A stretch of 64,000 nucleotides of DNA from a virus (Duplodnaviria > Heunggongvirae > Uroviricota > Caudoviricetes): IMG/VR virus record IMGVR_UViG_3300022188_000009; one strand, given 5' to 3'. Shown piece after piece: positions 1 through 55,776 of this stretch. The stretch's first letter is position 1. Each line of letters starts with the position of its first letter. The notes beneath the pieces are model-generated. The model did no database searches. It saw nothing but the letters and a program-made list of their open reading frames with translations, and had not been told where the DNA came from. The translations under genes were made by a program, and so were the position numbers.

Positions 1-135
1 TAGTGTGATCACTTGTAGTGTGATCACTTGTAGTGTGATCACTTGTAGTGTGATCACTTGTAGTGTGATCACTTGTAGTGTGATCACTTGTAGTGTGATC
101 ACTTGTAGTGTGATCACTTGTAGTGTGGTTGATTA
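1..135. repeat. Tandem direct repeat array: 15-bp unit tagtgtgatcacttg x8 plus a degenerate ninth copy. Each unit contains the palindrome GTGATCAC.
   Basis: Eight perfect head-to-tail copies are visible at positions 1-120, followed by tagtgtggttgat. The track ORF at 5..190 (MITCSVITCSV...) is just the translation of this repeat. Confidence 0.9.
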
Positions 136-330
136 TTTAGTACGTCTACCATCGACCACACCTCGTACTCCATGCTCAGCGATTATCTGACCTATTGAGA
201 AGTAATCTCGTGTAATATCAGATACTAATGCAAAAGCGGCATTCCTAGATATACTACACGTTTTTGCTATATCATCAAGAAAATCTATTATATTTTCATC
301 CACTCTAATTGAAATTTGTTTCTTTATCAT
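133..330 (-). CDS. Ribbon-helix-helix (CopG/Arc/ParG-like) DNA-binding protein, about 66 aa
   Basis: The translation MIKKQISIRVDENIIDFLDDIAKTCSISRNAAFALVSD has the typical RHH layout: an N-terminal beta-strand (ISIRVDE) followed by two helices and an S-R-N-A-A motif. I placed the start at the internal Met, which has the RBS agggg 8 nt upstream. The track ORF 133..408 would extend the N-terminus over the predicted promoter. Confidence 0.5.
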   Translation of the reverse strand: MIKKQISIRVDENIIDFLDDIAKTCSISRNAAFALVSDITRDYFSIGQIIAEHGVRGVVDGRRTK

Positions 331-385
331 AATTACTATACCCCTATTGTGATTGATTACATACGTACTGTGATTACCTATACCT

Positions 386-415
386 ATAATATAATCACTA
401 TATACCACTTGTCAA
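386..415 (-). promoter_or_regulatory. Sigma-70-like promoter for the RHH gene, with an overlapping inverted-repeat operator
   Basis: On the minus strand there is TTGACA (reverse complement of 410-415), an 18-nt spacer, then TATTAT (reverse complement of 386-391). The inverted repeat GTGATTA (370-376) / TAATCAC (392-398) overlaps the -10 element. Its half-sites resemble the GTGATCAC core of the terminal repeats. Confidence 0.4.
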
Positions 416-759
416 GCCTTTTTAAGCAAAAAGTGATACTTTGCAAAACACTAAATATCGAAAAGTGGCATAATCCTCAATAAAATCAGATACTTCTAGA
501 TCATGGTCAAAGGACATGTTATATAATTGATAAAGAAGCCCCAATAAGTACTCCAGTTAACAAATTTCATCCCGGCGGAAGAATATGTAATAATATGAGT
601 AAGTTAAACCAACAAAAAGCTTTAAATACCTTTAAATAAGTAATTAAAAATAACAAAAAGGTAATAACCCACGTATAATAATAGCTTTATCAAACATAAT
701 AGTACCCTGTATATTACCGAGTATATTGGTATTCTAGGCTCTCTGTGGTGATGTGGTGG

Positions 760-870
760 GGTGCGGTATCTGTATACTAGTCTATATTATCGGTATGGTA
801 TCGGTATACTATCGGTATGCTATGCTGTGGTATCGGTATGCTAGTCTATTAGAATTATGGTATAATATCA
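760..870. repeat. Iteron-like cluster of CGGTAT(G/A) direct repeats (at least 6 copies), followed by a perfect extended -10 element TGGTATAAT at 858-866 on the + strand
   Basis: The motif ggtatcggtat recurs at about 764, 791, 801, 813 and 834. The sequence tatggtataatatc matches the TGnTATAAT consensus. Confidence 0.55.
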
Positions 871-959
871 GGTATTTACAGATAAATTAATCATAATAAA
901 AAATTGTCTCAATCAATCGGTATGTTGGTTTGCAGTCAGAGCGTGCCTTCGCAAGACCC

Positions 960-1470
960 TATGGTAATATAATACAATAATAATAGTAGTATAATACAAT
1001 CTAATAAACAAGTATAATGAGTTTCTATAAACCAGCATACCGATATTCGATAAATATTCAAGTAATTCGGACAATTAGTATAATAATAGTAATATAATAA
1101 ATAGTATAGTAACCTGTTAGTAATCAATCAATAAGCCAGTAATTTGATAACTCAATAATGCTCTAAACCCGCCATGGTCTAGTAATACATCGATTTAATA
1201 ATAATAGTAATATATAATATGATAGTATATCTTATAATCCAATAAACCAGTATATCGATAATTTTTATAGACTAGTATATCATGTTTAATCAAATAATTC
1301 GGGTAGTTAGTATAATAATAATAGTAATATAATCTAATAAACCAGTATATCGATAATATAGCATAGCATACCGATAGTATTGATAGTCTATAAACCAGTA
1401 TATCGATACAGCATCCGATAACCCAGTAATACTCTAAACCCGCTATGGGCTAGTGATGGGCTGATTTAAT
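960..1470. repeat. Complex AT-rich iteron region, a candidate origin of replication or packaging site
   Basis: The motif taataatagtaatataat is repeated at about 1081, 1199 and 1313. The motif (a/t)ataaaccag(t/c)ata(t/c)cgata occurs four times, at about 1028, 1241, 1336 and 1389. A 28-nt module, ctctaaacccgc(c/t)atgg(t/g)ctagt(a/g)at, occurs twice (1161-1188 and 1433-1460). No credible ORF is present. Confidence 0.6.
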
Positions 1471-1630
1471 AGTATGATAAATGATATAGTATATCGCTAT
1501 ACAGATATTCTCTATAGACTGGGATTTCTGCTAATTTAGCTTAAGTTAATCTTCTATACTTATTGGTGTACTTATATACTTAGTTTTAGTACTCTTAATA
1601 CTGTTAAATTGATGTGATATTTTTATTTTC

Positions 1631-1640
1631 CGCCCGGGCG
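1631..1640. other. GC-rich 10-bp palindrome CGCCCGGGCG, flanked by short TTTTC/AAAAT arms, in an otherwise AT-rich spacer
   Basis: The sequence ttttccgcccgggcgaaaatt is a potential hairpin or recognition site. There is no T-tract, so it is not a canonical terminator. Confidence 0.4.
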
Positions 1641-1863
1641 AAAATTGGTAAGAACATACGTTAAACCTATTGGAATGTAAGAGTTTTCTAATGGGTGACT
1701 AGTGGTCTTATTATTCTAGGTATCTATAGTAATATATAAATACCTGTAATCATTAGAATTACACTGATGTGTTACACTAGTGTAATGACCATTATCAATG
1801 TTATAATTCTTGATGGCATTATCAATCAATTAAACTGTATTTTTTTAGAAGGAGGATCCTATT

Positions 1864-2052
1864 GTGAAAGGTAATATTACAATTACAAAAGAACGTTTTT
1901 TAAGGCTTATTGTTAGGTCTACAATATTAAATAGACTAGAATGTGGAGGAGTAGATAATTGGGAATGGTATGATGAAAGTATGAATCCAGAAGGTGAGTT
2001 AAGTATGGATGAATTTGAAGAAGAAGAGAAGCTTCGTATATCTAAATTATAG
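1864..2052 (+). CDS. Hypothetical protein with an acidic C-terminus
   Basis: GTG start, preceded by the RBS gaaggagg at 8-nt spacing. Clean 62-codon ORF. Confidence 0.5.
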   Translation: MKGNITITKERFLRLIVRSTILNRLECGGVDNWEWYDESMNPEGELSMDEFEEEEKLRISKL

Positions 2053-2067
2053 AAAGGAAATTTTAAA

Positions 2068-2262
2068 ATGAATGACATAATTGTAGTAGTTTTTATAATT
2101 TCTATACTATTATTTATTTATTTTATTCCAACTTTCGTAGCGTATAGAAAATTACATGATGATTTCTTCGACATTTTTATATATAATATTTTCTATGGTT
2201 ATACTATTATTGGTTGGATAATGGTATTAATTTGGGCACGTACTAGGGATGACGAACTATAG
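2068..2262 (+). CDS. Small membrane protein, similar to the superinfection-immunity (Imm) family
   Basis: Two predicted transmembrane helices. The motif IYFIPTFVAYRK is reminiscent of the Imm_superinfect family, which carries a FLPTIIA-type motif. RBS is gaaaggaaa. Confidence 0.4.
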   Translation: MNDIIVVVFIISILLFIYFIPTFVAYRKLHDDFFDIFIYNIFYGYTIIGWIMVLIWARTRDDEL

Positions 2263-2311
2263 CAATTATGTTGATGTTTGTATAATAATTAATTAAATAA
2301 GGAGAAAAACA

Positions 2312-2974
2312 ATGAAGACATATTTAAAATTAGTAACAATAGTGTTCATAGGTTTTATGATGTTTGGATGTACTCATGATTTGAGAATTACAAATCTTGA
2401 CCGATATCAAAATTTTGAATTTAAGCAATTTCGAAATAAAACTATAATTGGAATAGTTCCAGAGTTAGATAATATAGAACATAAAAAAATAGTCAAAAGT
2501 TTCGCTGAAGGCTTAACAAAATATGAAGCTGTAGTTATTTTACCCTATAATCTTTTAAATATTTCTTCAGTTGATTATATAACTAAGATTAGTATTAATT
2601 CAAATTATAGAGGATCTTGGACTAATTATTTTATAGATTTTCCAGGATTTTTAATATGGACACCAGTATGGCATGGTTATAATTATACAATATCTCATAA
2701 TGTTCAAATTAAATTAATTAGCGGTAAAACCAATAAAGAAATAAAACAATTTAATATTCCAATTGAACTTAAAGTTAAACAAGCAGATAGTGGTAGAACT
2801 TGGGTACAATGTGGGTGGTTAGAGACAGGAATAATGCCTTTTATTGGCGGATTTTTCCATATACAATATGATGATGATGTTACAGCTATGGTTACTAAAG
2901 AAATATATTACCCTATAGGTAGTTATGTAGCTGAGGAAATAATAGATCAAATTATGGCTTATGAGAATAAATAA
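2312..2974 (+). CDS. Lipoprotein of unknown function
   Basis: Signal peptide with lipobox (MKTYLKLVTIVFIGFMMFGC). RBS aaggag. A TATAAT -10 element sits at 2281-2286. Confidence 0.6.
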   Translation: MKTYLKLVTIVFIGFMMFGCTHDLRITNLDRYQNFEFKQFRNKTIIGIVPELDNIEHKKIVKSFAEGLTKYEAVVILPYNLLNISSVDYITKISINSNYRGSWTNYFIDFPGFLIWTPVWHGYNYTISHNVQIKLISGKTNKEIKQFNIPIELKVKQADSGRTWVQCGWLETGIMPFIGGFFHIQYDDDVTAMVTKEIYYPIGSYVAEEIIDQIMAYENK

Positions 2975-3036
2975 ATTAAAAATAAAGTAAAGAACAATAT
3001 TAATAATAAACATATATAATAGTATTAAATAATAAT

Positions 3037-3111
3037 AAGAGTGTAGATCAATGGTAGAGCATCAGTCTTTGATACTGGTGGTTATAGGTTCAAATCCTAT
3101 CATCCCTTCCA
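3037..3111 (+). tRNA. tRNA-Gln(UUG)-like gene with an encoded CCA end and a weak acceptor stem
   Basis: D-arm gatc/aatggta/gagc. Anticodon arm tcagt/cTTTGat/actgg, giving anticodon TTG. T-arm atagg/ttcaaat/cctat. The 3-prime end is catccct-t-cca. The acceptor stem pairs in only 5 of 7 positions and has two A-C mismatches. Confidence 0.5.
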
Positions 3112-3139
3112 ACAATACTTTATAAAATAGAGAATAATT

Positions 3140-3337
3140 ATGGCTTGTATATGTCAACAATGTGGGAAAAAATATCGAATTGATTTGGTTATTCCTGATA
3201 ATATTTGGGAAAAAATAAAACCTATAAATAAACCGAAAGGATCTGGACTTTTATGTGGAATGTGTATAATGAACAAACTTGAATCTTTTAATAAATATGG
3301 GATTATTTATGTAAATAATAATCTTTTTGAATTATAA
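3140..3337 (+). CDS. Small zinc-ribbon protein
   Basis: Motif CQQCG...CGMC. Confidence 0.4.
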   Translation: MACICQQCGKKYRIDLVIPDNIWEKIKPINKPKGSGLLCGMCIMNKLESFNKYGIIYVNNNLFEL

Positions 3338-3357
3338 TATAATAAAAGGGGTAAATA

Positions 3358-3552
3358 ATGAGTACATCTGAATGTATTAGATGTAAGAGACATGTTTCAA
3401 TTCATTATATAAATGATGATAATTTGTGTTGTGATTGTGCAAGTGGAAGTTTAGAATTTTTAAAACGTGATTTAAAGTTTGATATACTAAAAACAATACC
3501 TCCAGATCCATATAAAAAAGCTATAAAGGAGATAAAAAATGAAAGAGTTTAA
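3358..3552 (+). CDS. Small Cys-rich protein
   Basis: Motif CIRCKRH...CCDC. RBS aaaagggg. Confidence 0.4.
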   Translation: MSTSECIRCKRHVSIHYINDDNLCCDCASGSLEFLKRDLKFDILKTIPPDPYKKAIKEIKNERV

Positions 3553-3736
3553 AAAAGAATTAAGAGATTTAATTAACACACATAGTATTGATACTGTGTG
3601 TAATATATCAGATACCTTGTTGGCAGAACTAATTGTCGGTGCTATTAAAGGTATAAAAAAAACTAAAAGAAAGTGTTTTGGTTGCCATGAATGTGATCCA
3701 AAACAGCCCACGTGTACACATATTGAAAGGAGTTAA
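3539..3736 (+). CDS. Small protein with a C-terminal Cys cluster
   Basis: RBS aaggag. Motif CFGCHECDPKQPTC. Confidence 0.4.
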   Translation: MKEFKKELRDLINTHSIDTVCNISDTLLAELIVGAIKGIKKTKRKCFGCHECDPKQPTCTHIERS

Positions 3737-3737
3737 A

Positions 3738-4727
3738 ATGAAAATTCTACAGCATCTAAAAGTACCAACCGGTGATATACTGGTGGTAGAAGGTAAAAAA
3801 GGTAAATTGGAAATGTTATCTATAGGCGACTATGGACAGGGTCATAACCTAAAATGCGATGCTCTAGGAATATCAAGAGTGTTAGACAAAGTAGAACATA
3901 CTGATATACTGCCTTTAGAAGAAAAGTGGGTAATCACCATATCTACCCAATACGGCTGTTCAATGGGGTGTAAGTTTTGTGATGTTCCTAAAGTAGGGTC
4001 TGGTAAAAATGCTACCTATAAAGACCTTATAAAGCAAATATTGCAAGGCATCTATTTACACCCAGAAGTTAAATCAACAAAAAGACTCAATATTCATTAC
4101 GCTCGTATGGGTGAGCCTACGTGGAATCCTAATGTGTTGGATGCTACGAAATGGGCTAAGGAACATCTTGATCATGAATATAAGATTCATCCGGTGGTGT
4201 CTACTATGATGCCAAGAAAGAATGAATGGCTAAGAACCTTTATACACACTTGGATGAGAATAAAGAATCGGCTACTTGAAGGGAATGCAGGATTACAGTT
4301 AAGCATTAACTCGACCAATGACAAAGAAAGAGAAGTAATGTTTAATAATAATGCCTGCTCCTTTCCTGAGATAGCCAATATTATGAGAGGTGTTATTCCA
4401 AATGGAAGAAAGATTACTCTTAATTTTCCTATAGCCGGCTATGAGATAGATCCAAGCGTTTTACTGAACTTTTTTGATCCGGATGATTATATCATTAAAT
4501 TAACGCCCATGCATAAAACGTCGGCTGCTCTCAAAAATGATATTAAAACAGAAGGAGATTATACAGAGTATCATCCATATGAACAGCATGAAACAGAGTT
4601 AAAGGCTGCTGGATATGATGTTTTGGTCTTTATAGCATCAAAAGAAGAAGACTTGGGATTGATAACTTGTGGGAATGTTATCTTATCCGGGGCATTACCA
4701 AAAGTTGATTATAAACGAGTATTATAA
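3738..4727 (+). CDS. Radical SAM enzyme of the RlmN/Cfr family
   Basis: The segment VITISTQYGCSMGCKFC matches RlmN ATLCVSSQVGCALECKFC and includes the CxxxCxxC cluster. ARMGEPTWN aligns with RlmN MGMGEPLLN. LSINSTNDKERE aligns with RlmN ISLHAPNDEIRD. The C-terminal ITCGN aligns with RlmN AACGQ. The start is placed at the MKILQ Met, which has the RBS aaaggag. The residue equivalent to RlmN Cys118 is Thr. Confidence 0.7.
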   Translation: MKILQHLKVPTGDILVVEGKKGKLEMLSIGDYGQGHNLKCDALGISRVLDKVEHTDILPLEEKWVITISTQYGCSMGCKFCDVPKVGSGKNATYKDLIKQILQGIYLHPEVKSTKRLNIHYARMGEPTWNPNVLDATKWAKEHLDHEYKIHPVVSTMMPRKNEWLRTFIHTWMRIKNRLLEGNAGLQLSINSTNDKEREVMFNNNACSFPEIANIMRGVIPNGRKITLNFPIAGYEIDPSVLLNFFDPDDYIIKLTPMHKTSAALKNDIKTEGDYTEYHPYEQHETELKAAGYDVLVFIASKEEDLGLITCGNVILSGALPKVDYKRVL

Positions 4728-4747
4728 ATATTGAAAGTTTTAAGGAG

Positions 4748-4954
4748 GTGATAGTAGAGGTGATAGTACATGAACAAAATAGGTCTATGCTTCCGGTTCT
4801 ATATAAATCTATAATGCCGGTTTTATATACGTCTAGAGTTACGGTTTTGTGTAATCCTGAAATTATACACGTAATGCCGATTAAACCACATAGACTTATT
4901 ACAGGAGTTAGTAAATCAGGTAAAAAAGGTATGGTTATAGACATGTTTGTATAA
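4748..4954 (+). CDS. Hypothetical small protein with an internal repeat (MLPVLYKS / IMPVLYTS)
   Basis: RBS aaggagg. Questionable, because the DNA in this stretch is itself repetitive. Confidence 0.25.
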   Translation: MIVEVIVHEQNRSMLPVLYKSIMPVLYTSRVTVLCNPEIIHVMPIKPHRLITGVSKSGKKGMVIDMFV

Positions 4955-5020
4955 ATTCTTTAGACAGGTAAAGATGATATGAGTGGTAGTTCGTTTTAAT
5001 TTATAGAAAGAGGTGATTAA

Positions 5021-5365
5021 ATGCAAGAAGAATTGATAGGTTTAATTAACCATGGAAATGAATTAGTTTTGAGATTAGAATCTAGAACAGGAGAAAACAA
5101 TTATTCCAGCCCTGTTATAAGTGAAGATAGTGTAATCAAAATTATAGGAAAACTTAGATATAAAATAAAAACTGAAGATGATCTATATCATAAATTACGT
5201 ACTATTGTTAAAGTTATTCATTCTAATATGACTCATATTGATGATCTATCATTAAATGAAGTAGAAATTATATACATATGGGCATGTCATGTTGATAGAC
5301 TGTTAAAAGAATTAGATACTACCATTCTGGAGGATATGGTAGCTTTGAAAAAACTACTAAGTTAA
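5021..5365 (+). CDS. Hypothetical protein
   Basis: 114-codon ORF with the RBS agaggtg. Confidence 0.45.
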   Translation: MQEELIGLINHGNELVLRLESRTGENNYSSPVISEDSVIKIIGKLRYKIKTEDDLYHKLRTIVKVIHSNMTHIDDLSLNEVEIIYIWACHVDRLLKELDTTILEDMVALKKLLS

Positions 5366-5387
5366 TCAATAATTTAAAGGTGGTTTT

Positions 5388-5621
5388 ATGAAACATTTTA
5401 TTCTGGCAATGATTGTGCTGTTCGTATTTCAGATGACAGTTATTGGAGATAGTTTGAAGTTCGATCCTTTGTATAATAACAAAGCTAAATGTTTTATGTC
5501 TTTGAACTATGAGGGTATTGAAGGGCCGGCTCCTAAATACTGGAAAATCAAAGATGCTGTTTATAAAGAAGGAATTCTCAAACGTGATTTGATTTTTGTA
5601 CGTATTGATGGTAATAAATGA
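5388..5621 (+). CDS. Small secreted protein
   Basis: N-terminal signal peptide MKHFILAMIVLFVFQMTVIG. Confidence 0.45.
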   Translation: MKHFILAMIVLFVFQMTVIGDSLKFDPLYNNKAKCFMSLNYEGIEGPAPKYWKIKDAVYKEGILKRDLIFVRIDGNK

Positions 5622-5636
5622 TATAAACGACGTAAG

Positions 5637-6095
5637 ATGTTGACTATTGCAGCCGATAAACGTATATCTTGTTTTGAGAGTAATACTGTTGATGCTGCCT
5701 GGTTATGTCCTGAGTACATTAAAGAAATTATGCCTGTAGTTAAAGCTCCTACGGAAAAGAAAGTATTTTATGTTTACTTTGATTTTAACAAGTCTAATAT
5801 TAAAGACGAACAGGTGCCTATACTGAAAGCTGCTATTGACTATGCTAAGCTTGGTGGTACTGTAGATATCAAACTGGAAACAAGTTGTGATTTTCGTGGT
5901 TCTGTTGCATATAACTTTAAGCTTGGAGAAGACCGTGCTGATGCTGTAGCATTATGGTTTGCTGATAACGGATTAGATTTACCTATCTCTATTGATAATT
6001 ATGGTGAAGAGCGGTCTATGATTCGTTCTTTAGTAAATGGTATCTTTTGTCCTGATTGTTGGGCTGATCGTAAAGTAAAGGTTACTGTTGAATAG
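5637..6095 (+). CDS. Hypothetical protein
   Basis: 152-codon ORF, followed by a strong terminator. Confidence 0.45.
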   Translation: MLTIAADKRISCFESNTVDAAWLCPEYIKEIMPVVKAPTEKKVFYVYFDFNKSNIKDEQVPILKAAIDYAKLGGTVDIKLETSCDFRGSVAYNFKLGEDRADAVALWFADNGLDLPISIDNYGEERSMIRSLVNGIFCPDCWADRKVKVTVE

Positions 6096-6732: not shown

Positions 6733-7251
6733 ATGAATAAAAATTTACAAAGTGCAAGGAAAAATAAAAATGATGAATTTATTAAGATAAAAGATCATCC
6801 AAGATATTCTATTTCAAAAAGTGGTATAGTATGCAACGATAAAACAGGAAAGGTTTTAAAAAATATAAAACTTAAAACAGGATATTTACGGGTAACTTTA
6901 TCTAGTAGAAAACAAGTTTTAGTACATAGATTGGTTGCAGAAGCTTTTATTCCTAATCCATATAATTTACCTTGTGTTAATCATATAGATGAAAATCCTG
7001 AAAATAATAATAACTATGGTAACTTAGAATGGGTTACTCACAAACAAAATATAAGACATTCATGTAAAGGTTGCAAAAGTTATTTGTTTAATAAGAAAGA
7101 ATATTATGAAACAAACAGTTGTACCAGATCGGATTTCAAAAGAATATGTAATAGGCATGTATGGAATATAGTAGATTTTACAGAATTAGATAGTGGAGAA
7201 AAACGGTATTCAAATAAAAAATATTATTATATTGAAAGAGGCCCCCAATGA
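6733..7251 (+). CDS. HNH homing endonuclease
   Basis: The motif VNHIDENPENNNNYGNLEWVTHKQN is the classic H-N-H core of phage homing endonucleases. Confidence 0.7.
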   Translation: MNKNLQSARKNKNDEFIKIKDHPRYSISKSGIVCNDKTGKVLKNIKLKTGYLRVTLSSRKQVLVHRLVAEAFIPNPYNLPCVNHIDENPENNNNYGNLEWVTHKQNIRHSCKGCKSYLFNKKEYYETNSCTRSDFKRICNRHVWNIVDFTELDSGEKRYSNKKYYYIERGPQ

Positions 7252-8282
7252 ACAGTAACCTACAAAGAGCTAAAAAAGCAAAACAGGATGAATTCTACAC
7301 ACAGCTTACAGACATTGAAAAAGAATTAAAACATTACCGAGAGTATTTTAAAGGAAAAAACGTATTTTGTAATTGTGATGACCCAAGTATTAGTGGATTT
7401 TTTCACTATTTTTCATATAATTTTGAATATTTAGGTCTAAAAAAACTAATTACTACCTGTTACAAGAATCAACAGATGAATTTATTCAGTAAACGTGATA
7501 TAGAAAAAGCGATTTATCTTGAGTATGAAGGTACTAAAAATGACGGTAATGTACCAGCTCTTGAAGACATCGGTATTAAACCGTTAAAAGGTAATGGAGA
7601 TTTTCGTTCTGAAGAATGTATAGAGATTCTTAAAGGAGCTGATGTTGTTGTTACTAATCCACCATTTTCATTATTTAGAGAGTATTTGGCCCAATTAATT
7701 AAGTATGAAAAGAAATTTCTGATTGTTGGCCACATGAATGCTTTAACCTACAAAGAGATTTTTCCTTTAATAAAAAACAATAAAATTTGGTTAGGCACCA
7801 ATAATAATCAAAGTTTTGTATTTGGATCACCTTATAAAAATACTCTTGAAAATAACAAAAAATTTTGCAAACAAAAAGGTTATAATGGGGATAAATACAT
7901 TAAAGTGCCAGGAATAAATTGGTATACAAATCTTCTACATAAAAAGAGAAACAAAAAACTTACATTATTTGAAAATTATTATGGGCATGAAGAAAACTAT
8001 CCAAAATATGATAATTACGATGCTATTGAAGTCAGTAGAGTAGTAAATATCCCTGGAGACTTTAATGGTGTAATGGGTGTACCAATAACTTTTTTAGACA
8101 AACATAATCCTGAACAGTTTGAGATTATATGGCAGGCTGCAGGAAATACACGGGCAACTGCTCCAAAAGAAATTTTAGATAGATTAAATTATCAGCAACA
8201 TATCGAAGATAGGGGTGGTTGTGCGATTATTAAAGGAAAAAGGACTTATGCAAGAATATTAATTAAAAGGAAAATAATGTAA
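7248..8282 (+). CDS. Putative N6-adenine DNA methyltransferase
   Basis: VVVTNPPFSL matches catalytic motif IV, (D/N)PP(Y/F). The start overlaps the stop of the upstream HNH gene. Confidence 0.5.
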   Translation: MNSNLQRAKKAKQDEFYTQLTDIEKELKHYREYFKGKNVFCNCDDPSISGFFHYFSYNFEYLGLKKLITTCYKNQQMNLFSKRDIEKAIYLEYEGTKNDGNVPALEDIGIKPLKGNGDFRSEECIEILKGADVVVTNPPFSLFREYLAQLIKYEKKFLIVGHMNALTYKEIFPLIKNNKIWLGTNNNQSFVFGSPYKNTLENNKKFCKQKGYNGDKYIKVPGINWYTNLLHKKRNKKLTLFENYYGHEENYPKYDNYDAIEVSRVVNIPGDFNGVMGVPITFLDKHNPEQFEIIWQAAGNTRATAPKEILDRLNYQQHIEDRGGCAIIKGKRTYARILIKRKIM

Positions 8283-9394
8283 TGAAAATAGAATTACGCG
8301 AAATACCAATTCAAGAAGTAGTACAATATAGTAAACATTTAAAGAAACGTCAAGGTTACAAAGATAATGCTGAAGAAGGTGTATATGGTATGAATGGTAG
8401 ATTAAATATTCGTCCTGCATATCAAAGAGAATTTATTTATAAAGATCTTCAAAGAAATGCAGTAATTAACACTGTCACACACGACTTCCCATTAAATGTT
8501 CTTTACTGGGCAGTAAATAAAGACGGAAGTTATGAGGTGTTAGATGGGCAACAACGCCTCATAAGCATAGGTCAATATGTAAACAGTGATTTTAGTTTAA
8601 ACCATAAATTTTTTCACAACTTAACCGACGATGAACGTAATCAAATATTAGATTATAAACTGATGGTTTATTTATGTGAAGGAAGAGATAATGAAAAATT
8701 AGATTGGTTTAAAATTATTAATATAGCAGGTGAAAAATTAACTGATCAAGAATTACGTAATGCTATTTATACTGGATCGTGGTTACATGATGCAAAAAGT
8801 TATTTCAGTAAAACAGGTTGTCCTGCATATAAAATAGCCTCGGATTACGTTAAAGGCTCGCCCATACGCCAGAACTACCTAGAAACTGTTTTGAAATGGG
8901 TAAGTGAAAATAATATTGAAGACTACATGTCAAAAAATCAGCATAACAAGGATGCCGTTGAGCTATGGAATTATTTTGAAAAAAGTATTTCATGGTTTAA
9001 AAATATATTTATTAAATACAGAAAAGAAATGAAAGGGTTACCAATCGGAAGTTTATACAATGATTTTAGTGACAATGAGTACCCTCTGCCCGATCAAATA
9101 GAAAAAACCGTCAGTGAATTAATGATAAACGATGAAGTGACTAAAAAATCAGGTATATACCCATACATACTTACTGATGATGAAAAATATTTAAACATTC
9201 GTTCATTTGATAATAATCAAAAACGTGAAGCATATGAAAAACAGGCCGGTATATGTGTACACTGTAAAAAACATTTTGAAATAAATGATACGGAAGCCGA
9301 TCATATAACTCCATGGTCTAAGGGAGGAAAAACTACTCCTGAAAATTGTCAAATATTATGCCTATACTGTAACCGTACAAAAAGTTCCAAATAA
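8282..9394 (+). CDS. DUF262 (ParB-like NTPase) plus C-terminal HNH nuclease, a GmrSD-like architecture
   Basis: The N-terminus carries the LDGQQRL motif that is the signature of DUF262. The C-terminus, CVHCKK...ADHITPWSKGG...NCQILCLYCNRTK, is a canonical HNH. Confidence 0.6.
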   Translation: MKIELREIPIQEVVQYSKHLKKRQGYKDNAEEGVYGMNGRLNIRPAYQREFIYKDLQRNAVINTVTHDFPLNVLYWAVNKDGSYEVLDGQQRLISIGQYVNSDFSLNHKFFHNLTDDERNQILDYKLMVYLCEGRDNEKLDWFKIINIAGEKLTDQELRNAIYTGSWLHDAKSYFSKTGCPAYKIASDYVKGSPIRQNYLETVLKWVSENNIEDYMSKNQHNKDAVELWNYFEKSISWFKNIFIKYRKEMKGLPIGSLYNDFSDNEYPLPDQIEKTVSELMINDEVTKKSGIYPYILTDDEKYLNIRSFDNNQKREAYEKQAGICVHCKKHFEINDTEADHITPWSKGGKTTPENCQILCLYCNRTKSSK

Positions 9395-14193: not shown

Positions 14194-14277
14194 TATTTTA
14201 CTATAAAGAAGGGTTCTTCTGGTTCTGGGGCTCTCCTGACAGGTTTTTGAGGGTTCTGGATTCTGAGTGGAGGTGAT

Positions 14278-19490: not shown

Positions 19491-20351
19491 ATGAAATTTA
19501 TAAAAAAATTATATAATAATATTATTTGGAAAATGATTTATCATAATAAACCAATGTCTGAAAGCTTTATCAGAAGGTTTAAAGATAATGTTAATTGGTG
19601 GCAAATTTCTAGTTATCAAACTTTATCTGAAGACTTTATCAGAGAATTCAAAGACAGAGTCTTTTGGGATGAAATTTCTTATAATCAAATTTTATCAGAA
19701 GACCTCATAAGGGAGTTTTCCGATAAAGTAAATTGGGGTTGGATTTACTATAAACAAGCTTTACCTGAAGCTTTTATCAAAGAATTCTGGCACAAGGGAA
19801 ATTGGGCTATAATCTCACATAAACAAGTCTTATCAGAAGACTTTATAAGAGAATTTCAGGATAAAATTGATTGGCCAGGAATATCTCATTATCAGAATTT
19901 ATCAGAAGATTTTATAAGAGAGTTTCAGGATAAAGTTAACTGGAAAGCGATATCTAGCCACCAAATTTTATCAAAAAACTTCATTCATGAATTCAAAGAT
20001 GAAATTGATGTCGAAGTACAGTTTGTAAAACACCATAAGAAATTAATTTATAAAGAAAAATGTAAACTGGTCAAAAAGTACGCAGAAGAATACGGCCTGA
20101 AATATGACAATAAACATCTGTATGCTTACCGTAAACACGACAAGTTTGGCAGGGGTATGCACAGTAATACCGTTTACAAAAAGGGAGTTTATAGAGACTG
20201 GCATTGCGATCTGGAGTCAGGTTTTGGAGCTTCTTTCGGATTAGGAGTATTTCCGCAGGGTAACACACCTGTTCGTGTGAAGATTAAGGATATCGGTTGC
20301 TGGGCTGACGATTCAGATAAACTGAGGGTTTGGGAATTCGAAGTATTATAA
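19491..20351 (+). CDS. Tandem-repeat protein with about 6.5 copies of a 23-aa repeat (xQxLSEDFIREFxDKVNWxxISx)
   Basis: The repeats are visible at both the protein and the DNA level. Confidence 0.55.
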   Translation: MKFIKKLYNNIIWKMIYHNKPMSESFIRRFKDNVNWWQISSYQTLSEDFIREFKDRVFWDEISYNQILSEDLIREFSDKVNWGWIYYKQALPEAFIKEFWHKGNWAIISHKQVLSEDFIREFQDKIDWPGISHYQNLSEDFIREFQDKVNWKAISSHQILSKNFIHEFKDEIDVEVQFVKHHKKLIYKEKCKLVKKYAEEYGLKYDNKHLYAYRKHDKFGRGMHSNTVYKKGVYRDWHCDLESGFGASFGLGVFPQGNTPVRVKIKDIGCWADDSDKLRVWEFEVL

Positions 20352-49097: not shown

Positions 49098-50261
49098 ATG
49101 GAACTGAGTATAAAAATTTCTGCTACTATGAATAAGGAATCAGATTGGAACGATTTTTATGAACATCGTATTATCCGATTGCCTGCAGATGCTAGATCAA
49201 AATATAATTTACAGATTGAAGATTTTCTCTATCTGAGGAATAAATTTGGTGGGTATATAACCCTACAGATAGCAGAGGCATTTAAAGAGGATGTTGAAAG
49301 AAATCATCTATGTGGTTACGTAACTGCCACGAATTATGATAAATTATTTATTAAATCCCAAGATACTAATGAAGTCCAACAAGTGAGGGATATAACCCTC
49401 GGCTGTGACCCAGAAGCTTTTTTAGTTGATACTACAACCGGTAACATTATCGCAGCTCATCGATTTATGAAAAAATACGGGGATGTTGGACACGATGGTA
49501 TGTTACTTGAATTCAGACCATTACCATCAACCAGTGAAAATGTAGTTACAGCAAATATTGCAAATTTAATAATGAAAGCAAGAAAAATACTTAATGAGAG
49601 CACTGAGGGGCTTAAATACACGATGGTTGGTGCTTCCTCATGTCACGGCCTAGCTGCAGGTTTTCATCTCCATTACGGGCTTCCTGCAGGCCTTCTTGGA
49701 CGTAGACCAGCTGTGTCTAATATCGCTAAATTAATGACCAAAGCATTTGATTATTATATAGGTATTCCATCTATTATACCTGAAGGAAATGAAGACACCA
49801 GTAGACGAACGATGCAATTTGTTGAATATGGGAAGCCTGGTGGATACCGTTTAGATAATCGTACCTTTGAATATAGATTGCCTGGTGGTATAAATTTGAG
49901 GCATCCTTGTTTAACAAGAGGGCTTATGGCTCTGGGGGCCGTTGTTGTGGAGGACTTAGTTAGTAGGATACATACAAGTACTGATTACTTCTCAAATTTG
50001 AAAGAGGTGGCCACGGATGAGGATTTAAAAACTATTTATCCGAGATTACCTGTTATTGAGACACTTTATTCGGTAATCTGTAATCCTGATATCGGTCCTG
50101 CGAAAGCACATTTTGATGTTATAAAGGAAGATATACGAAAAATGATCGGTTACAGTGAACGTGCAGCATCAGTTGAATCTTATTTTACGTGTTTGGATCA
50201 TGGTATCCAGTATGATTCTAATCTTGAAGCAAATTGGGGAGGTTTTAATGAGAAACAGTAA
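49098..50261 (+). CDS. Carboxylate-amine ligase (GCS2/GS-like amidoligase), copy 2
   Basis: Carries ITLGCDPEAFLVD, and HGLAAGFHLHYG as the HxH motif. RBS gggggg. Confidence 0.55.
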   Translation: MELSIKISATMNKESDWNDFYEHRIIRLPADARSKYNLQIEDFLYLRNKFGGYITLQIAEAFKEDVERNHLCGYVTATNYDKLFIKSQDTNEVQQVRDITLGCDPEAFLVDTTTGNIIAAHRFMKKYGDVGHDGMLLEFRPLPSTSENVVTANIANLIMKARKILNESTEGLKYTMVGASSCHGLAAGFHLHYGLPAGLLGRRPAVSNIAKLMTKAFDYYIGIPSIIPEGNEDTSRRTMQFVEYGKPGGYRLDNRTFEYRLPGGINLRHPCLTRGLMALGAVVVEDLVSRIHTSTDYFSNLKEVATDEDLKTIYPRLPVIETLYSVICNPDIGPAKAHFDVIKEDIRKMIGYSERAASVESYFTCLDHGIQYDSNLEANWGGFNEKQ

Positions 50262-51936
50262 AGACAAGTGGTCGTTTTATAATCTACCATCACGACCAGA
50301 CTTGAATGCTGGAGAAATTATGTATTGGAAGAATACTCTTAAGAAAATTCTAAAGATTGGCTTAGAGTTTGAATATAATCTCCCAGAAAAGAAAAACGGG
50401 TCCTGTAAAGGTGATAGTACTACATGCCCGTGTGTAAATTTAACGCCTGAAAATGACTGTTGGCAACAATGTATTAATACAGAAGCATGCAACTTAATTA
50501 AACCAAATTTAGAGCTGTGTGATAATGTTACAGGTACATGTGAACCAGAAGACTGTAATACATGTGCTCACTTTACTCCGCATTGTAACGGAATATTTTG
50601 CCCTAATTTTGTTAGTTATTGCTTTGCATGCTCTGATTTTCGTAATGATTGTAAAAACTGTAAGTATAAGTATGATCCAAATCGTAATCCAGAAAATATT
50701 CGAAAACATATGATTAATGAATTAAAACCTAACAATACTTACGGTCAGGTTAGCCCAACAGGCGTTCACAGTATAGTAACTGATGGTTCCTTACTTGGTA
50801 AACGTGGGGCAGAAATTATTACTGTTGGTCGACGTGTAGATTATTGGGAATTTTATCGAATGGCTGAAAACATCATCAGTCTATCAACTAAACGTGGTGC
50901 GTACTTAAATGAAAGATGTAGCATCCACATGCACGCCTTAGCCAGTTACTATGGCAAGGTAGTTCCTGGGCAGGAAAAACTCAGTGTTCCAACTCGTGTA
51001 AATGAAATGGAGCGTGATATGCCCGAAATTATTTTAGCAAATTTACACCAGTTAGTTAGGCGTTACCAAAATGCTATGACATGGATGGTAATGGGCCTGT
51101 CAGAACAACACAGAATGACAAGATGGGAAAAATTTAGAGTTAGTGTACTCCCAGTTAGTGCTGTTATGAATCATATGTGTGAAGTACAGCAAAAAGTTGC
51201 CTCTAACGCAGGGGGGAATAAGTATGGATGGATTAATTATAGTAATATTGAATTTTCACCAACTGGCGATGTTAGTAGATTCCATGTAGAGTTTAGAGCA
51301 GCAGACGGTCTTAATTCTCCAAGTGCTGTTGCAGCTATTGCTTGTATGTACTATGCTCTTGTTATTAAAGCAGTAGAGATAAGTCGTTACGGTGTTGTGG
51401 AAATTGGCGGAGATAACTGGACAAAACAAGCAGATACAGTAAAGAAAGTATTACTGAATAATATGAGTTCGTATAATGAAGGTGATCGTTTTGGAGATAC
51501 TTCCAAACTTCACAAATATTATAATATTCTTATTGGTGAGTCGCTTGATTTGGTACGACAGTTGAAATCTATATTGATTAAGATTGGGCCTGCTTTTGAA
51601 GTACTTGAAAAATTGGCAGAACGCCCCTGTGCTTTACGCCTTGTTGATGGCCAAACCTGGGAACGTATTGAAGACGACCTAAAAGTCATCGTTAATAAAG
51701 AAGGTATGTTTGAATTAACTGTTAGTGAGATTATTACACTTAACCAAGTATCTGAGTGTCGTGATATAGATGAATGGGTTGGAGTTATTGGTCAGATTTT
51801 GCGTAATGACCCTGAATTAAATATTGATCCGGATAATGTGGAAGTCGAAGATACTATAAAAAGTTTCGTAATTAAAAAACAAGAAGAGGGTGAGTTGGTG
51901 TGGTCAAAGAACATCGGAGCCCCTATACTTATTTAA
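50248..51936 (+). CDS. GS-like amidoligase (GxExE type) with an approximately 90-aa Cys-rich insertion (about 20 Cys)
   Basis: IGLEFEYNLP matches the GxExE N-terminal strand motif of GS/GCS2-like ligases. ERCSIHMHALAS is the HxH motif. Start at MRNSK, with the RBS ggggagg. Confidence 0.45.
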   Translation: MRNSKDKWSFYNLPSRPDLNAGEIMYWKNTLKKILKIGLEFEYNLPEKKNGSCKGDSTTCPCVNLTPENDCWQQCINTEACNLIKPNLELCDNVTGTCEPEDCNTCAHFTPHCNGIFCPNFVSYCFACSDFRNDCKNCKYKYDPNRNPENIRKHMINELKPNNTYGQVSPTGVHSIVTDGSLLGKRGAEIITVGRRVDYWEFYRMAENIISLSTKRGAYLNERCSIHMHALASYYGKVVPGQEKLSVPTRVNEMERDMPEIILANLHQLVRRYQNAMTWMVMGLSEQHRMTRWEKFRVSVLPVSAVMNHMCEVQQKVASNAGGNKYGWINYSNIEFSPTGDVSRFHVEFRAADGLNSPSAVAAIACMYYALVIKAVEISRYGVVEIGGDNWTKQADTVKKVLLNNMSSYNEGDRFGDTSKLHKYYNILIGESLDLVRQLKSILIKIGPAFEVLEKLAERPCALRLVDGQTWERIEDDLKVIVNKEGMFELTVSEIITLNQVSECRDIDEWVGVIGQILRNDPELNIDPDNVEVEDTIKSFVIKKQEEGELVWSKNIGAPILI

Positions 51937-51945
51937 GAGGTGCTT

Positions 51946-52767
51946 ATGTGTGCTATTTTTGGAGTAGGATTTCAACGAGGTTGTAAAATATGTAATAATG
52001 AGATGGTACGGGAGATTATCCGTAATTTATTTCTTGAAAATATGGTAAGGGGCCGGACAGCTTCTGGCCTCGCCTATGTTTCAGGTAAAGAAATTCAAGT
52101 AATTAAGAAGAATACTGCTGCTTGTGATTTTATTCAGTTACCTGACTATAAAAAATCAAATCTTACATATTTAAAAATGTCGAATTCTGAAGATTCTATA
52201 AATTCAGAACATCGACCTGTTTCGGTACTTGGACATTGCAGATTAAAAACGAAAGGGACAGAACTTAATAATGTCAACAATCACCCAATTATAAGAGATA
52301 ATATAGTTGGAGTGCATAACGGTATGATTAGTAATGATGACTACTTATTTGACCATTATTCAGATAAATTCAAGCGTAACGGAAAAGTCGATAGTGAGAT
52401 TATATTTGCATTAATTGAGCATTATTCTGGCAATAACGGGACAATAGTTGAAGCCATTCAGAAAGCAAATCAAGAGATCTACGGAGGATTTGCCTGTGCC
52501 ATGGTACATAGATTTCAACCATACATTGTGTGGTTATTTAGAAACAGCAATCCATGTTCTATTTTTCATTACAAAGATAGTGGCCTTGTAATCTGGTCAT
52601 CAATGCCACAGTTTATAAGGTCGGCAACAAAAGGATATACTTTAGGGGAACCAGAAGAAATTGAATTTCCTGCAGAGACTGGAATTGCAATTGATCTATA
52701 TCAGAATAAATTTTACAGGTTCAAATTAAAGGACCAAGGAAAAGAAACTAATGCAGGAGTTCACTAA
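51946..52767 (+). CDS. Class-II (Ntn) glutamine amidotransferase, copy 1
   Basis: N-terminal MCAIFG, whose Cys would be exposed after Met removal. Also RGRTASGLA, HCRLKTKG...NNHP and VDSEII. RBS agaggtg. Confidence 0.6.
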   Translation: MCAIFGVGFQRGCKICNNEMVREIIRNLFLENMVRGRTASGLAYVSGKEIQVIKKNTAACDFIQLPDYKKSNLTYLKMSNSEDSINSEHRPVSVLGHCRLKTKGTELNNVNNHPIIRDNIVGVHNGMISNDDYLFDHYSDKFKRNGKVDSEIIFALIEHYSGNNGTIVEAIQKANQEIYGGFACAMVHRFQPYIVWLFRNSNPCSIFHYKDSGLVIWSSMPQFIRSATKGYTLGEPEEIEFPAETGIAIDLYQNKFYRFKLKDQGKETNAGVH

Positions 52768-53734
52768 ATATTTAATGGGGGTTATGGAACAACCAAAGTT
52801 ACTTGAAGAAAAATCCCCATCACCAACTGTTTGTATAGGACAAATGCTTTATGAACCAGGTATGCCTATTCCACTAATGTCACCTGTTATAATTGATACT
52901 AACTATCAAGAAAAATCGAGTTACACCCTTCAAATTAGTGAGTCTAACAGAGTGTTTGTGAAAGTAAAAACATATTTTCCGCCTAATAGTAATTTTAACC
53001 CGATTAATACAATAGTAACAAATGTTAATAAAGTTAGTGTAACAGAGCCCAAACAATTACTTGACAACCATTGTGTTAAAGATATCGATATATTTAAAAA
53101 AGAAAATATAGGTAAGATTGCAGACTATGTTAAGGAACACGGGGTAATCACTTTTAGAATGGAAAACCCCAATACGGCTATAAATTTTATGAGCACCTGT
53201 TTAAAAAGTGTAAAAAGTGATTATAGATATTCCTGTTTCATAAAACGGTTTTGTGTGGGAAATAGACACCCTAGACTTTCATGTATTGATGATACTTTGA
53301 TCTTATTTGTTAGTTTTTTCGACTTGCCTTATGCAATTCCTGTATATAATAAGAAAAAAGCTGATGGTATGGGAGTACGCATCGGCATGTACTGGCCAAA
53401 ATCTACAAAAAAAATGGGTAAGTTGTGTGAGGTTGACTCATTGTACTTTGCAGTATCTATGCACCCTGATAACTTGTTGCACATTGATGGGCAAAAAATA
53501 AATAAACCTGGATTTATTTGTAATGATTATATAGATAATTTCTGTAATACATTGAATAACGAGATTAAACGACGTAAAGATTTACCAAGGCTTATTGAAG
53601 AGGCTAAACAAAATAAGAAAAAAGAAGAAGGAGAACCAAGTAAATTTACAGATGTGTATTTAAGTACAACAAATTTAGGTAGTTCAGCTACTTCTTATAC
53701 GTATACAACTAGTAGTAATACATCAACTTATTAA
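52751..53734 (+). CDS. Hypothetical protein with a Ser/Thr-rich C-terminus
   Basis: Lies between the two class-II GATase genes. Confidence 0.45.
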   Translation: MQEFTKYLMGVMEQPKLLEEKSPSPTVCIGQMLYEPGMPIPLMSPVIIDTNYQEKSSYTLQISESNRVFVKVKTYFPPNSNFNPINTIVTNVNKVSVTEPKQLLDNHCVKDIDIFKKENIGKIADYVKEHGVITFRMENPNTAINFMSTCLKSVKSDYRYSCFIKRFCVGNRHPRLSCIDDTLILFVSFFDLPYAIPVYNKKKADGMGVRIGMYWPKSTKKMGKLCEVDSLYFAVSMHPDNLLHIDGQKINKPGFICNDYIDNFCNTLNNEIKRRKDLPRLIEEAKQNKKKEEGEPSKFTDVYLSTTNLGSSATSYTYTTSSNTSTY

Positions 53735-53756
53735 AATAAAGGTTAGGAGGTAACCC

Positions 53757-55763: not shown

Positions 55764-55776
55764 GAGGATATAGTTT

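Follow-up and report, generated by a model that had tools for sequence, protein, structure and literature searches.

A putatively autoregulated ribbon-helix-helix gene beside a variable-length tandem repeat array in an uncultured large phage

MetJ is a ribbon-helix-helix (RHH) protein of which one dimer binds each 8-bp palindromic met box, the boxes being arranged in tandem two to five times. Iterated sites also form the operators of omega (ParB of pSM19035), which consist of seven to ten contiguous 7-bp WATCACW repeats (PMC9499535), and Reg576 of p576 is an autoregulated RHH repressor of establishment genes, encoded beside anti-restriction genes (PMC6294495). We describe here a locus that shares features with each of these, found at the start of a 64-kb stretch of viral DNA (IMG/VR record IMGVR_UViG_3300022188_000009, 64,000 nucleotides) that we refer to as the window. 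A perfect tandem array of 15-bp units lies next to a minus-strand gene for a small RHH protein, and the promoter of this gene carries sites that resemble the core of the array unit. The arrangement is most likely of a kind already known, and the protein family is a new one, not yet catalogued and without a Pfam model. The reading that we favour, and to which we give about an even chance, is that the RHH protein regulates its own synthesis and that the array is a variable-length, multi-site platform for its binding. The elements of the locus are as follows.

1-127, no strand assigned: perfect tandem array, unit TAGTGTGATCACTTG, period 15, 8.5 copies, 100% matches (Tandem Repeats Finder, TRF)
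125-135, plus strand: array-edge site GTGGTTGATTA, overlapping the RHH stop codon (133-135) and also present in the related contig L012
133-330, minus strand: RHH gene, 65 aa (MIKKQISIRVDENIIDFLDDIAKTCSISRNAAFALVSDITRDYFSIGQIIAEHGVRGVVDGRRTK), from the list of open reading frames (ORFs) and family alignments
341-345, minus strand: Shine-Dalgarno sequence AGGGG, 10 nt upstream of the ATG at 330-328
348-360, plus strand: leader site T-GTGATTGATTAC (GTGATTGATTAC at 349-360), between transcription start and Shine-Dalgarno sequence; the minus strand holds the heptad AATCACA
369-377, plus strand: site T-GTGATTAC (GTGATTAC at 370-377), one inverted-repeat arm, just past the -10
386-415, minus strand: sigma-70-like promoter, TTGACA (415-410) with either a 16-nt spacer and TATATT (393-388) or an 18-nt spacer and TATTAT (391-386)
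391-399, minus strand: site GTGATTAT (ATAATCAC on the plus strand), second inverted-repeat arm
431-438, plus strand: fourth heptad-type site AAGTGATA, upstream of the -35, with AGTGATA at 432-438

The array comprises eight full units (1-120) followed by the partial unit TAGTGTG (121-127), and 5 nt separate it from the RHH stop codon. The 8-bp palindrome GTGATCAC is present once per unit, and its eight occurrences in the 64 kb all fall inside the array, where 0.5 would be expected in the window as a whole and eight were reached in no shuffle. There is only one such perfect array within the 64 kb; the unit does not recur elsewhere in the window with three or fewer mismatches, and no second copy was found there or in any of the loci that we fetched. 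The site at the array edge, GTGGTTGATTA, is identical at 10 of 11 positions to the leader site at 349-359.

The promoter of the RHH gene has 11 of the 12 sigma-70 consensus bases and ranks first among the matches in the interval 1-2400. The preliminary description of this DNA had placed an inverted repeat over a promoter at 386-415, and this is borne out, with GTGATTA at 370-376 just downstream of the -10 and TAATCAC at 392-398 overlapping both the spacer and the -10 hexamer. The best of the promoter sites, GTGATTAC, matches the array palindrome at seven of eight positions. Sites of this general type are concentrated here, with three GTGATT/AATCAC sites within 50 bp at the promoter compared with 41 in the 64 kb, and four WATCACW-type heptads within 348-438 (91 bp) compared with 38 in the whole window. 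No GTGATYAC-type site was found near the presumed early promoters of the window, so that nothing suggests that neighbouring genes are under RHH control. The -35 block, cTTGACAA, has been kept in relatives of the window. We also note that in three of these relatives the whole RHH promoter including the spacer (cTTGACAA...ATTAATGCTTATATTG) is near-identical (L014, 11515-11545; L015, 9383-9412; L020, 7498-7530), even though the RHH proteins of the three are only 20-30% identical, and that the window retains the -35 block only.

The RHH gene is monocistronic, and its downstream neighbour runs towards it. The ORF list gives a longer frame (133-408, 91 aa, GTG start), but we place the start at the ATG at 330-328 because the homologues all begin at that ATG and the GTG lies inside the promoter; the 91-aa product was set aside on these grounds. 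An RHH protein encoded on the minus strand had been recognised from the outset, and only its length of 66 residues needs amendment, to 65 plus the stop codon. Pfam has no family that matches it at E <= 0.1, and none of four homologues matches the Pfam RHH models at E <= 5, one of them having a weak HicB match; PHROG 18157, 'transcriptional repressor', is a weak match to the window protein (E = 1.6e-4). A word-indexed search returned near-identical copies only, and an exhaustive HMMER search returned 13 further relatives with 37-61% identity. Colinear alignments with it, at 20-32% identity, are given by three small minus-strand ORFs that occupy the equivalent syntenic position in three large contigs, and a profile of the four sequences matches CopG in the PDB (E = 1.5e-4, aligned from residue 1), which is the only significant match of the family to a solved structure. 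The same profile retrieves 20 database members, with one cluster (P0070) common to both searches, and the family comprises about 35 members, is without a Pfam model and is so far confined to an uncultured large-phage clade.

The fold was modelled with AlphaFold2 on an alignment of 20 sequences, 19 of the database members plus the window protein; the model has a pLDDT of 75, with predicted helices at residues 12-25 and 29-43 followed by a short third helix and a tail. Residues 1-11, where the strand would be expected, are unstructured in the model and DSSP calls no strand. Foldseek ranks CopG (TM 0.74 on target, rmsd 2.0), Arc and RHH antitoxins at the top; none of these matches has a significant E-value, which is expected for 40 residues, but the list is consistent. 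Together, the profile and the model support an RHH fold for this protein. The family has in addition an invariant C-terminal motif, E..VRG..DGRRK (Q-I/L-x-x-E ... D-G-R-R/K), that is not seen in classic RHH repressors. A toxin-antitoxin pair was considered and rejected, as only the array lies downstream of the window gene and there is no partner gene. Only two loci, L021 and L026, have a co-directional ORF downstream, and the two ORFs show no relation: that of L021 (364-561) is itself RHH-like, with weak matches to Pfam RHH_1 and RHH_5, and overlaps the stop codon of the RHH gene; that of L026 (6057-6401) is 114 aa long and unrelated. The window has neither type.

The array looks terminal only because of how the sequence was assembled. 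Of its full length the window includes no more than the right-hand 127 nt, and the 8.5 copies are a lower bound. One MEGAHIT contig of 86.7 kb (L001), 100% identical to the window over 12 kb, reaches 9 nt further into the array and opens with 136 nt of it; another contig (L003) opens with 125 nt. Both were found by exact-protein look-up. In JGI metagenomes a pattern scan picked out L007, a contig of 4.3 kb whose last 127 nt are array in the same orientation, following 4.1 kb of other genes, including plus-strand genes of 512, 118 and ~280 aa and one for a 63-aa membrane protein ahead of the array. A 13.5-kb contig (L012) then spans the locus: an L007-type left flank is followed by two copies of TAGTGTGATCACTTG and TAGTGTG (2.5 copies) and by the RHH gene, with one mismatch to the window in 444 nt, and the contig stops at window position 534. 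The left flank and the spanning contig show that the array has sequence on both sides and lies between convergent genes, with a small membrane-protein gene (itself after an SSB-like gene) to the left and the RHH gene to the right. The homologous locus is likewise internal in contigs of 313, 304 and 276 kb (L014, L015 and L020). Four independent contigs end inside the array at differing registers (125, 127, 127 and 136 nt, near assembler k-mer sizes), as would result from a repeat that exceeds the k-mer or read length, and since assemblies break there, eight copies are only a lower bound. Repeats that break assemblies have been documented for other repeat-rich elements (PMC9605863). Thus, of the eight perfect copies at the very start that the preliminary description reported, the perfection of the copies stands, the number is a lower limit set by the assembler, and the start is that of a contig, not of a genome.

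The comparison of these contigs also shows an apparent copy-number polymorphism, with 2.5 copies in L012 (in the contig as assembled) and at least 8.5 in the window, between flanks that are 99.4-99.8% identical. On this comparison the array answers to the definition of a variable-number perfect tandem repeat, identical head-to-tail units that differ in copy number between near-identical genomes. The preliminary description had stated that repeat number varying freely with no phenotype would count against its reading, and the first half of this, the variation, is what we see. Some further observations concern the flanks. To the left of the array, L007 (472-4175) and L012 are only 86% identical over 3.5 kb; the identity is 99.4-99.8% in a tract that starts some 120 bp before the array, takes in the RHH gene and runs to window position 534. 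Such a mosaic suggests that the module has recombined recently. The small membrane-protein gene of L012 lacks 77 bp through a deletion. An intergenic element of about 55 bp (GGGTTCTTCTGGTTCTGGGG...) is present both in the window (14217-14266) and in L007 (2339-2391) with 90% identity, which supports the view that the two sides of the array belong to one genome type; it also recurs many times between genes in L012 and L013.

In relatives the gene order around the locus is conserved, running from a ~520-aa gene through a ~125-aa gene and a ~285-aa weakly SSB-like gene to the RHH gene, which lies on the opposite strand and is followed by a non-coding stretch and numerous small plus-strand genes; L015 is an exception with three extra genes between the SSB-like and RHH genes. 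This order is internal in L014 (313 kb), L015 (304 kb) and L020 (276 kb) and is also seen in shorter contigs. The RHH gene in each of the six lineages examined adjoins a repeat set of its own, mostly of tandem 15-20-bp units.

L014: eight exact copies of CATACCACA, in both orientations, within 160 bp (one elsewhere in 20.9 kb), between promoter and start codon
L015: 15-bp unit TAGTATATTACGGTA, at least six copies immediately upstream of the -35, the array running on into a gap of the scaffold
L020: ~11 copies of TATAGTATTAC, in the leader
L021: 20-bp unit, 7.9 copies; the contig begins in the array
L022-L024: ~16 units of 15 bp, differing between strains of one study, upstream of the promoter

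The top-scoring tandem repeat adjoins the RHH gene in six of the nine loci analysed (the window, L015 and L020-L023), and the array unit recurs near the promoter in L015 and L022; in L015 this is a 13/14 near-copy of TAGTATATTACGGTA between the -10 and the Shine-Dalgarno sequence. Eight contigs (L012, L016-L018, L021, L023, L024 and L026) end no more than ~400 bp upstream of the RHH gene, and the whole locus is spanned in L014, L020 and L022. The arrays of the relatives have no sequence in common with that of the window. The RHH gene thus keeps its neighbouring repeats across lineages although the repeats change in sequence, as would be expected if a DNA-binding protein co-evolves with its sites. 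The divergent neighbours of the RHH gene are not conserved in relatives and have no Pfam or PHROG match.

Two other properties of the locus are shared among lineages. GC content drops from ~0.44-0.58 to ~0.26-0.41 at or just before the RHH locus with gene direction unchanged in four of four lineages (window 1-2000 together with L012; L014, 10000-12000; L015, 6000-8000; L020, 6000-8000), and this drop is a conserved compositional boundary between two gene blocks. In almost all lineages the ~250 bp that follow the SSB-like gene contain two to four copies of the sequence ACCGA-N(2-4)-TTTTTT, which never occurs in the 64-kb window and may be a block-specific terminator or promoter element. Its sites are:

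L007, 3436-3571
L012, 928-1063
L014, 10956-11037
L020, 6973-7546
L026, 5899-5981

These properties suggest a plausible model for the locus. Host RNA polymerase would transcribe the RHH gene from its near-consensus sigma-70 promoter, and an RHH dimer occupying the GTGATYA-type sites over the -10 and leader would repress synthesis of the protein itself. The protein would also bind the array with one dimer per 8-bp GTGATCAC, as MetJ does on met boxes, and the array-bound dimers would form a nucleoprotein block 5 bp past the RHH stop codon, at the junction of two gene blocks. Such a block would probably titrate the repressor, acting as a reservoir that buffers the free protein, and more speculatively might be a barrier to transcription through the convergent junction between the left block and the low-GC small genes, among which are gp5.9-like and Imm-like genes. 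Replication slippage would expand and contract the array, which would account for the perfect copies, the 2.5- and at least 8.5-copy alleles, the breaks in short-read assemblies and the terminal look. That the protein both autoregulates and binds the array was already proposed in the preliminary description, and the sites at the promoter, the likeness of GTGATTAC to GTGATCAC and the presence of an own repeat set beside the RHH gene in five other lineages favour the proposal, the binding itself being what we infer from them.

A number of points weigh against this reading. The link between protein and array is drawn from the 7/8 match and from adjacency, and GTGATTAC by itself is not a rare sequence, with eight occurrences in the window. 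The 2.5-copy allele has an intact RHH gene, and many copies are not required. With 15-bp spacing, neighbouring palindromes are set on different helix faces, unlike in classic cooperative RHH arrays. The 7-nt spacers of the units are as identical as the cores, which shows recent amplification and not long selection on the core. The position of the window array downstream of the gene is also atypical, as those of relatives are upstream of the gene or in the leader, and there is a second repeat cluster in the window that could be their true counterpart.

765-849, no strand assigned: second repeat cluster of (C)ATACCGATA units (TRF), of uncertain membership in the RHH module

This cluster is upstream of the RHH gene, all six exact copies of ATACCGATA in the window fall within 788-1376, and the units resemble the ATACCGTA-type arrays beside the RHH gene in relatives; intergenic regions of this kind are, moreover, repeat-rich in general. 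The cluster lies within a 1.4-kb gene-free, AT-rich and repeat-rich stretch (420-1860) that extends from the RHH promoter to the first plus-strand gene. We note in the same stretch six copies of the direct repeat TAATAAACCAGTATATCGATAAT (995-1410) and an inverted repeat (806-853/1333-1380) that is 85% complementary, and that Logan contigs break within it at 694, 770 and 1244.

Several of these points also fit a rival explanation, in which the RHH protein autoregulates through the promoter-proximal sites only and the array is a neutral variable-number tandem repeat, born of slippage, perhaps seeded by the edge site at 125-135, and without function. The complete identity of copies and 7-nt spacers fits this well, as do alleles of 2.5 and at least 8.5 copies within near-identical flanks and arrays that differ between strains of one study in relatives, and other huge elements commonly carry perfect tandem repeats between their genes (PMC9605863). 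However, six lineages whose RHH proteins are only 20-33% identical all keep repeats by the gene, which speaks for long-term maintenance, the array unit recurs near the promoter in L015 and L022, and the palindrome of the window unit is one base off the best operator site; we consider a neutral array somewhat unlikely, though to be taken seriously. A partition system (type Ib or type II), in which the array would be the centromere and the RHH protein an adaptor like ParG, omega or ParR, would account for an RHH protein with iterated repeats that overlap its own promoter, as in the ParR/parC, ParG/parH and omega/parS layouts (PMC9499535), for promoter sites that fit the WATCACW heptad of omega, and for a conserved basic DGRRK tail that could contact a partner protein. 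Of the parts of such a cassette, an RHH protein and an iterated array are present, but no adjacent NTPase was recognised, the deviant Walker A motif KGGxxK[ST] being absent in all frames of the window, L008, L012, L014, L015 and L020. For a co-transcribed NTPase by the RHH gene no ParA-type motif was found, ParM-like proteins not having been searched for systematically. The gene is also monocistronic with a convergent downstream neighbour, its divergent neighbours are not conserved and match neither Pfam nor PHROG, the gene content looks like that of a lytic phage, in a clade with no match in GenBank phages or IMG/VR, and copies are as few as 2.5 where pSM19035 needs at least four contiguous repeats (PMC9499535). 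The type Ib partition reading of the preliminary description is not supported, as ParA-type motifs are absent from the 64 kb and from the relatives' and flanking loci scanned, where the preliminary description would look for a ParA-like ATPase upstream, and we regard partition as distinctly improbable.

The notion that the array marks a virion DNA end or a terminase site, as a genome terminus, telomere or pac site, draws on the ending of contigs at or near the locus in several lineages and on the gp5.9-type RecBCD inhibitor gene close by on the right (1864-2052), as would be expected near the DNA end that enters first; the TGATCA repeats of the array are also reminiscent of the pac hexamers of P1. 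Differing registers of the contig ends point instead to repeat-caused breaks and not to a fixed end, no terminase gene was seen in the flanks examined, and the arrays of relatives share no sequence with that of the window. With the array spanned in L012, its left flank known from L007 and the whole locus spanned in L014, L020 and L022 and internal in contigs of 276-313 kb, the telomere or packaging module of the preliminary description is not supported, and a terminus in any form is very improbable. Iterons of a replication origin, with the RHH protein as an accessory regulator, might be suspected from 15-20-bp iterated units that adjoin the AT-rich, gene-free 1.4 kb at 420-1860 and from the conserved compositional boundary at the locus. 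GC skew nevertheless keeps its sign across the locus in the window with L012 and in L014, L015 and L020, genes are co-directional on both sides with the strand switch ~8 kb to the left, and there is no adjacent initiator-like gene; RHH proteins are not known to act as iteron-binding initiators, and we hold an origin to be more doubtful still. As for an array that is purely an artefact of assembly and absent from the DNA, it is suggested by the position at a contig end and by a length, 127 nt, that is a commonly used assembler k-mer size, but the unit turns up in five contigs that were assembled independently, from different samples and by different pipelines, and in one of them 2.5 units are bordered on both sides by unique sequence; this explanation is scarcely credible.

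Other roles that we considered for the array were rejected. Folded as RNA, it forms 8-bp stems (z = -7.8), but these are without U-tracts and the units of relatives are not palindromic, which argues against a terminator; no intrinsic terminator was found in 1-2400. An ORF at 5-190 is a translation of the array and is taken as an artefact of the repeat. Control by Dam at GATC is countered by a GATC count (161 observed, 192 expected) that shows no avoidance, by the lack of GATC in relatives' arrays, and by an N6-adenine methyltransferase motif whose sole instance in the window is that of an EcoRI-like enzyme, with no Dam-like enzyme there.

The window as a whole looks like part of an uncultured large phage genome with lytic-looking gene content. 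It has ~32% GC with positive GC skew throughout, and all ORFs of at least 150 aa are on the plus strand except one that overlaps a plus-strand ORF; the genes are phage-like, and only the RHH gene counts as a minus-strand exception. Neither the DNA of window 1-6000 nor the RHH and SSB-like proteins (by tblastn) match GenBank phages, and the helicase of the window has relatives there only at 32% identity or less, in keeping with a phage clade that appears to be without cultured relatives. IMG/VR contained no match to the array, to either of the junction 30-mers or to the family of SSB-like proteins. An Rfam scan of the window found tRNA-Gln alone. The first plus-strand genes to the right of the gene-free stretch are the following.

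1864-2052, plus strand: gp5.9-type (T7) RecBCD inhibitor (Pfam E = 1.7e-14)
within 1864-2262, plus strand: superinfection-immunity (Imm-like) protein (Pfam E = 1.3e-15)
after the superinfection-immunity gene and before tRNA-Gln, plus strand: 220-aa ORF with no family match
3037-3111: tRNA-Gln(UUG)

This set (1864-2262, 3037-3111) is typical of genes expressed earliest after DNA entry. Elsewhere in the window, GCGC is absent from the 64 kb (~48 sites expected from base composition) and CGCG (15 versus 48 expected) and TCGA (117 versus 192 expected) are depleted, with no depletion of GATC or GAATTC, which suggests avoidance of particular restriction sites. Adjacent genes at 6733-9394 encode an HNH/NUMOD4 endonuclease, an EcoRI-family adenine methyltransferase (E = 3e-133) and a GmrSD_N plus HNH protein. 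Glutamine-amidotransferase-like and COOH-NH2 ligase-like genes are clustered beside the helicase gene at 49098-57069 and may be a nucleic-acid or metabolite modification module. A 69-bp tandem repeat at 19830-19981 (2.2 copies, 77% matches) is within the ORF 19491-20351 and thus corresponds to an internal 23-aa protein repeat.

If the favoured reading of an autoregulated RHH protein with the array as its binding platform is true, the locus defines an unannotated RHH family of ~35 members in an uncultured large-phage clade, and the paired protein and site sets from six lineages are a natural data set for the co-evolution of RHH specificity. The arrays are also a recurrent cause of contig breaks in the clade, and a repeat at a contig start is no proof of a terminus. 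A bolder proposal, which we think rather unlikely, is that the RHH protein and its fast-evolving array are a clade-wide module that is more than an autorepressor, with the array as a DNA "address" read by the RHH protein and the DGRRK tail recruiting a conserved phage or host partner; this could serve for positioning of the kind that centromeres bring about, to insulate two temporal gene blocks from each other, or to make co-infecting relatives incompatible or exclude them.

The comparison with known systems places the locus among several of them. With MetJ it has in common that GTGATCAC is also an 8-bp palindrome, but met boxes are contiguous at an 8-bp period that permits dimer-dimer contacts, whereas the period here is 15 bp, and no corepressor is indicated. 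The tandem repeats of Borgs and other huge elements resemble the array in their perfect copies, their intergenic position abutting the 3' end of a gene, their rapid turnover, their genome-unique units and their breaking of short-read assemblies (PMC9605863); the array differs from them in being the only one in 64 kb, in being tied to a conserved DNA-binding gene, and in having a unit like the promoter sites of that gene. Omega, ParG/parH of TP228 and ParR/parC of R1 and pSK41 are alike in combining an RHH protein with iterated sites that serve both as operator and as a multi-dimer platform. The four promoter sites of the window fit the WATCACW heptad of omega exactly, and the array units (GATCACW) fit it at six of seven positions. 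However, the promoter heptads of the window are 21-39 bp apart and not contiguous, those of the array are overlapping inverted pairs every 15 bp, there is no partner ATPase motif, and the genome is lytic-phage-like; omega is absent from the PDB matches of the RHH family even at E = 10.

Reg576, whose targets are genes called upon as soon as the DNA has entered the cell, is a functional analogue. The RHH gene of the window likewise lies beside genes that would protect incoming DNA (those for the gp5.9-like RecBCD inhibitor and superinfection immunity), and Reg576 (6gyg) is among the Foldseek matches of the model, although its operators are dual heptamers and not long arrays, and the window is without sites by the presumed early promoters. 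By analogy, the RHH protein would work most like the autorepressors of the CopG (pMV158), Arc (P22) and Mnt type, with which it shares a small size, a strand-helix-helix layout and sites over the -10 and leader of its own near-consensus promoter. It departs from CopG and Arc in ~20 extra C-terminal residues that carry E..VRG..DGRRK, in matching no Pfam family, and in an extra array of at least eight sites that lies outside the promoter, downstream of the gene.

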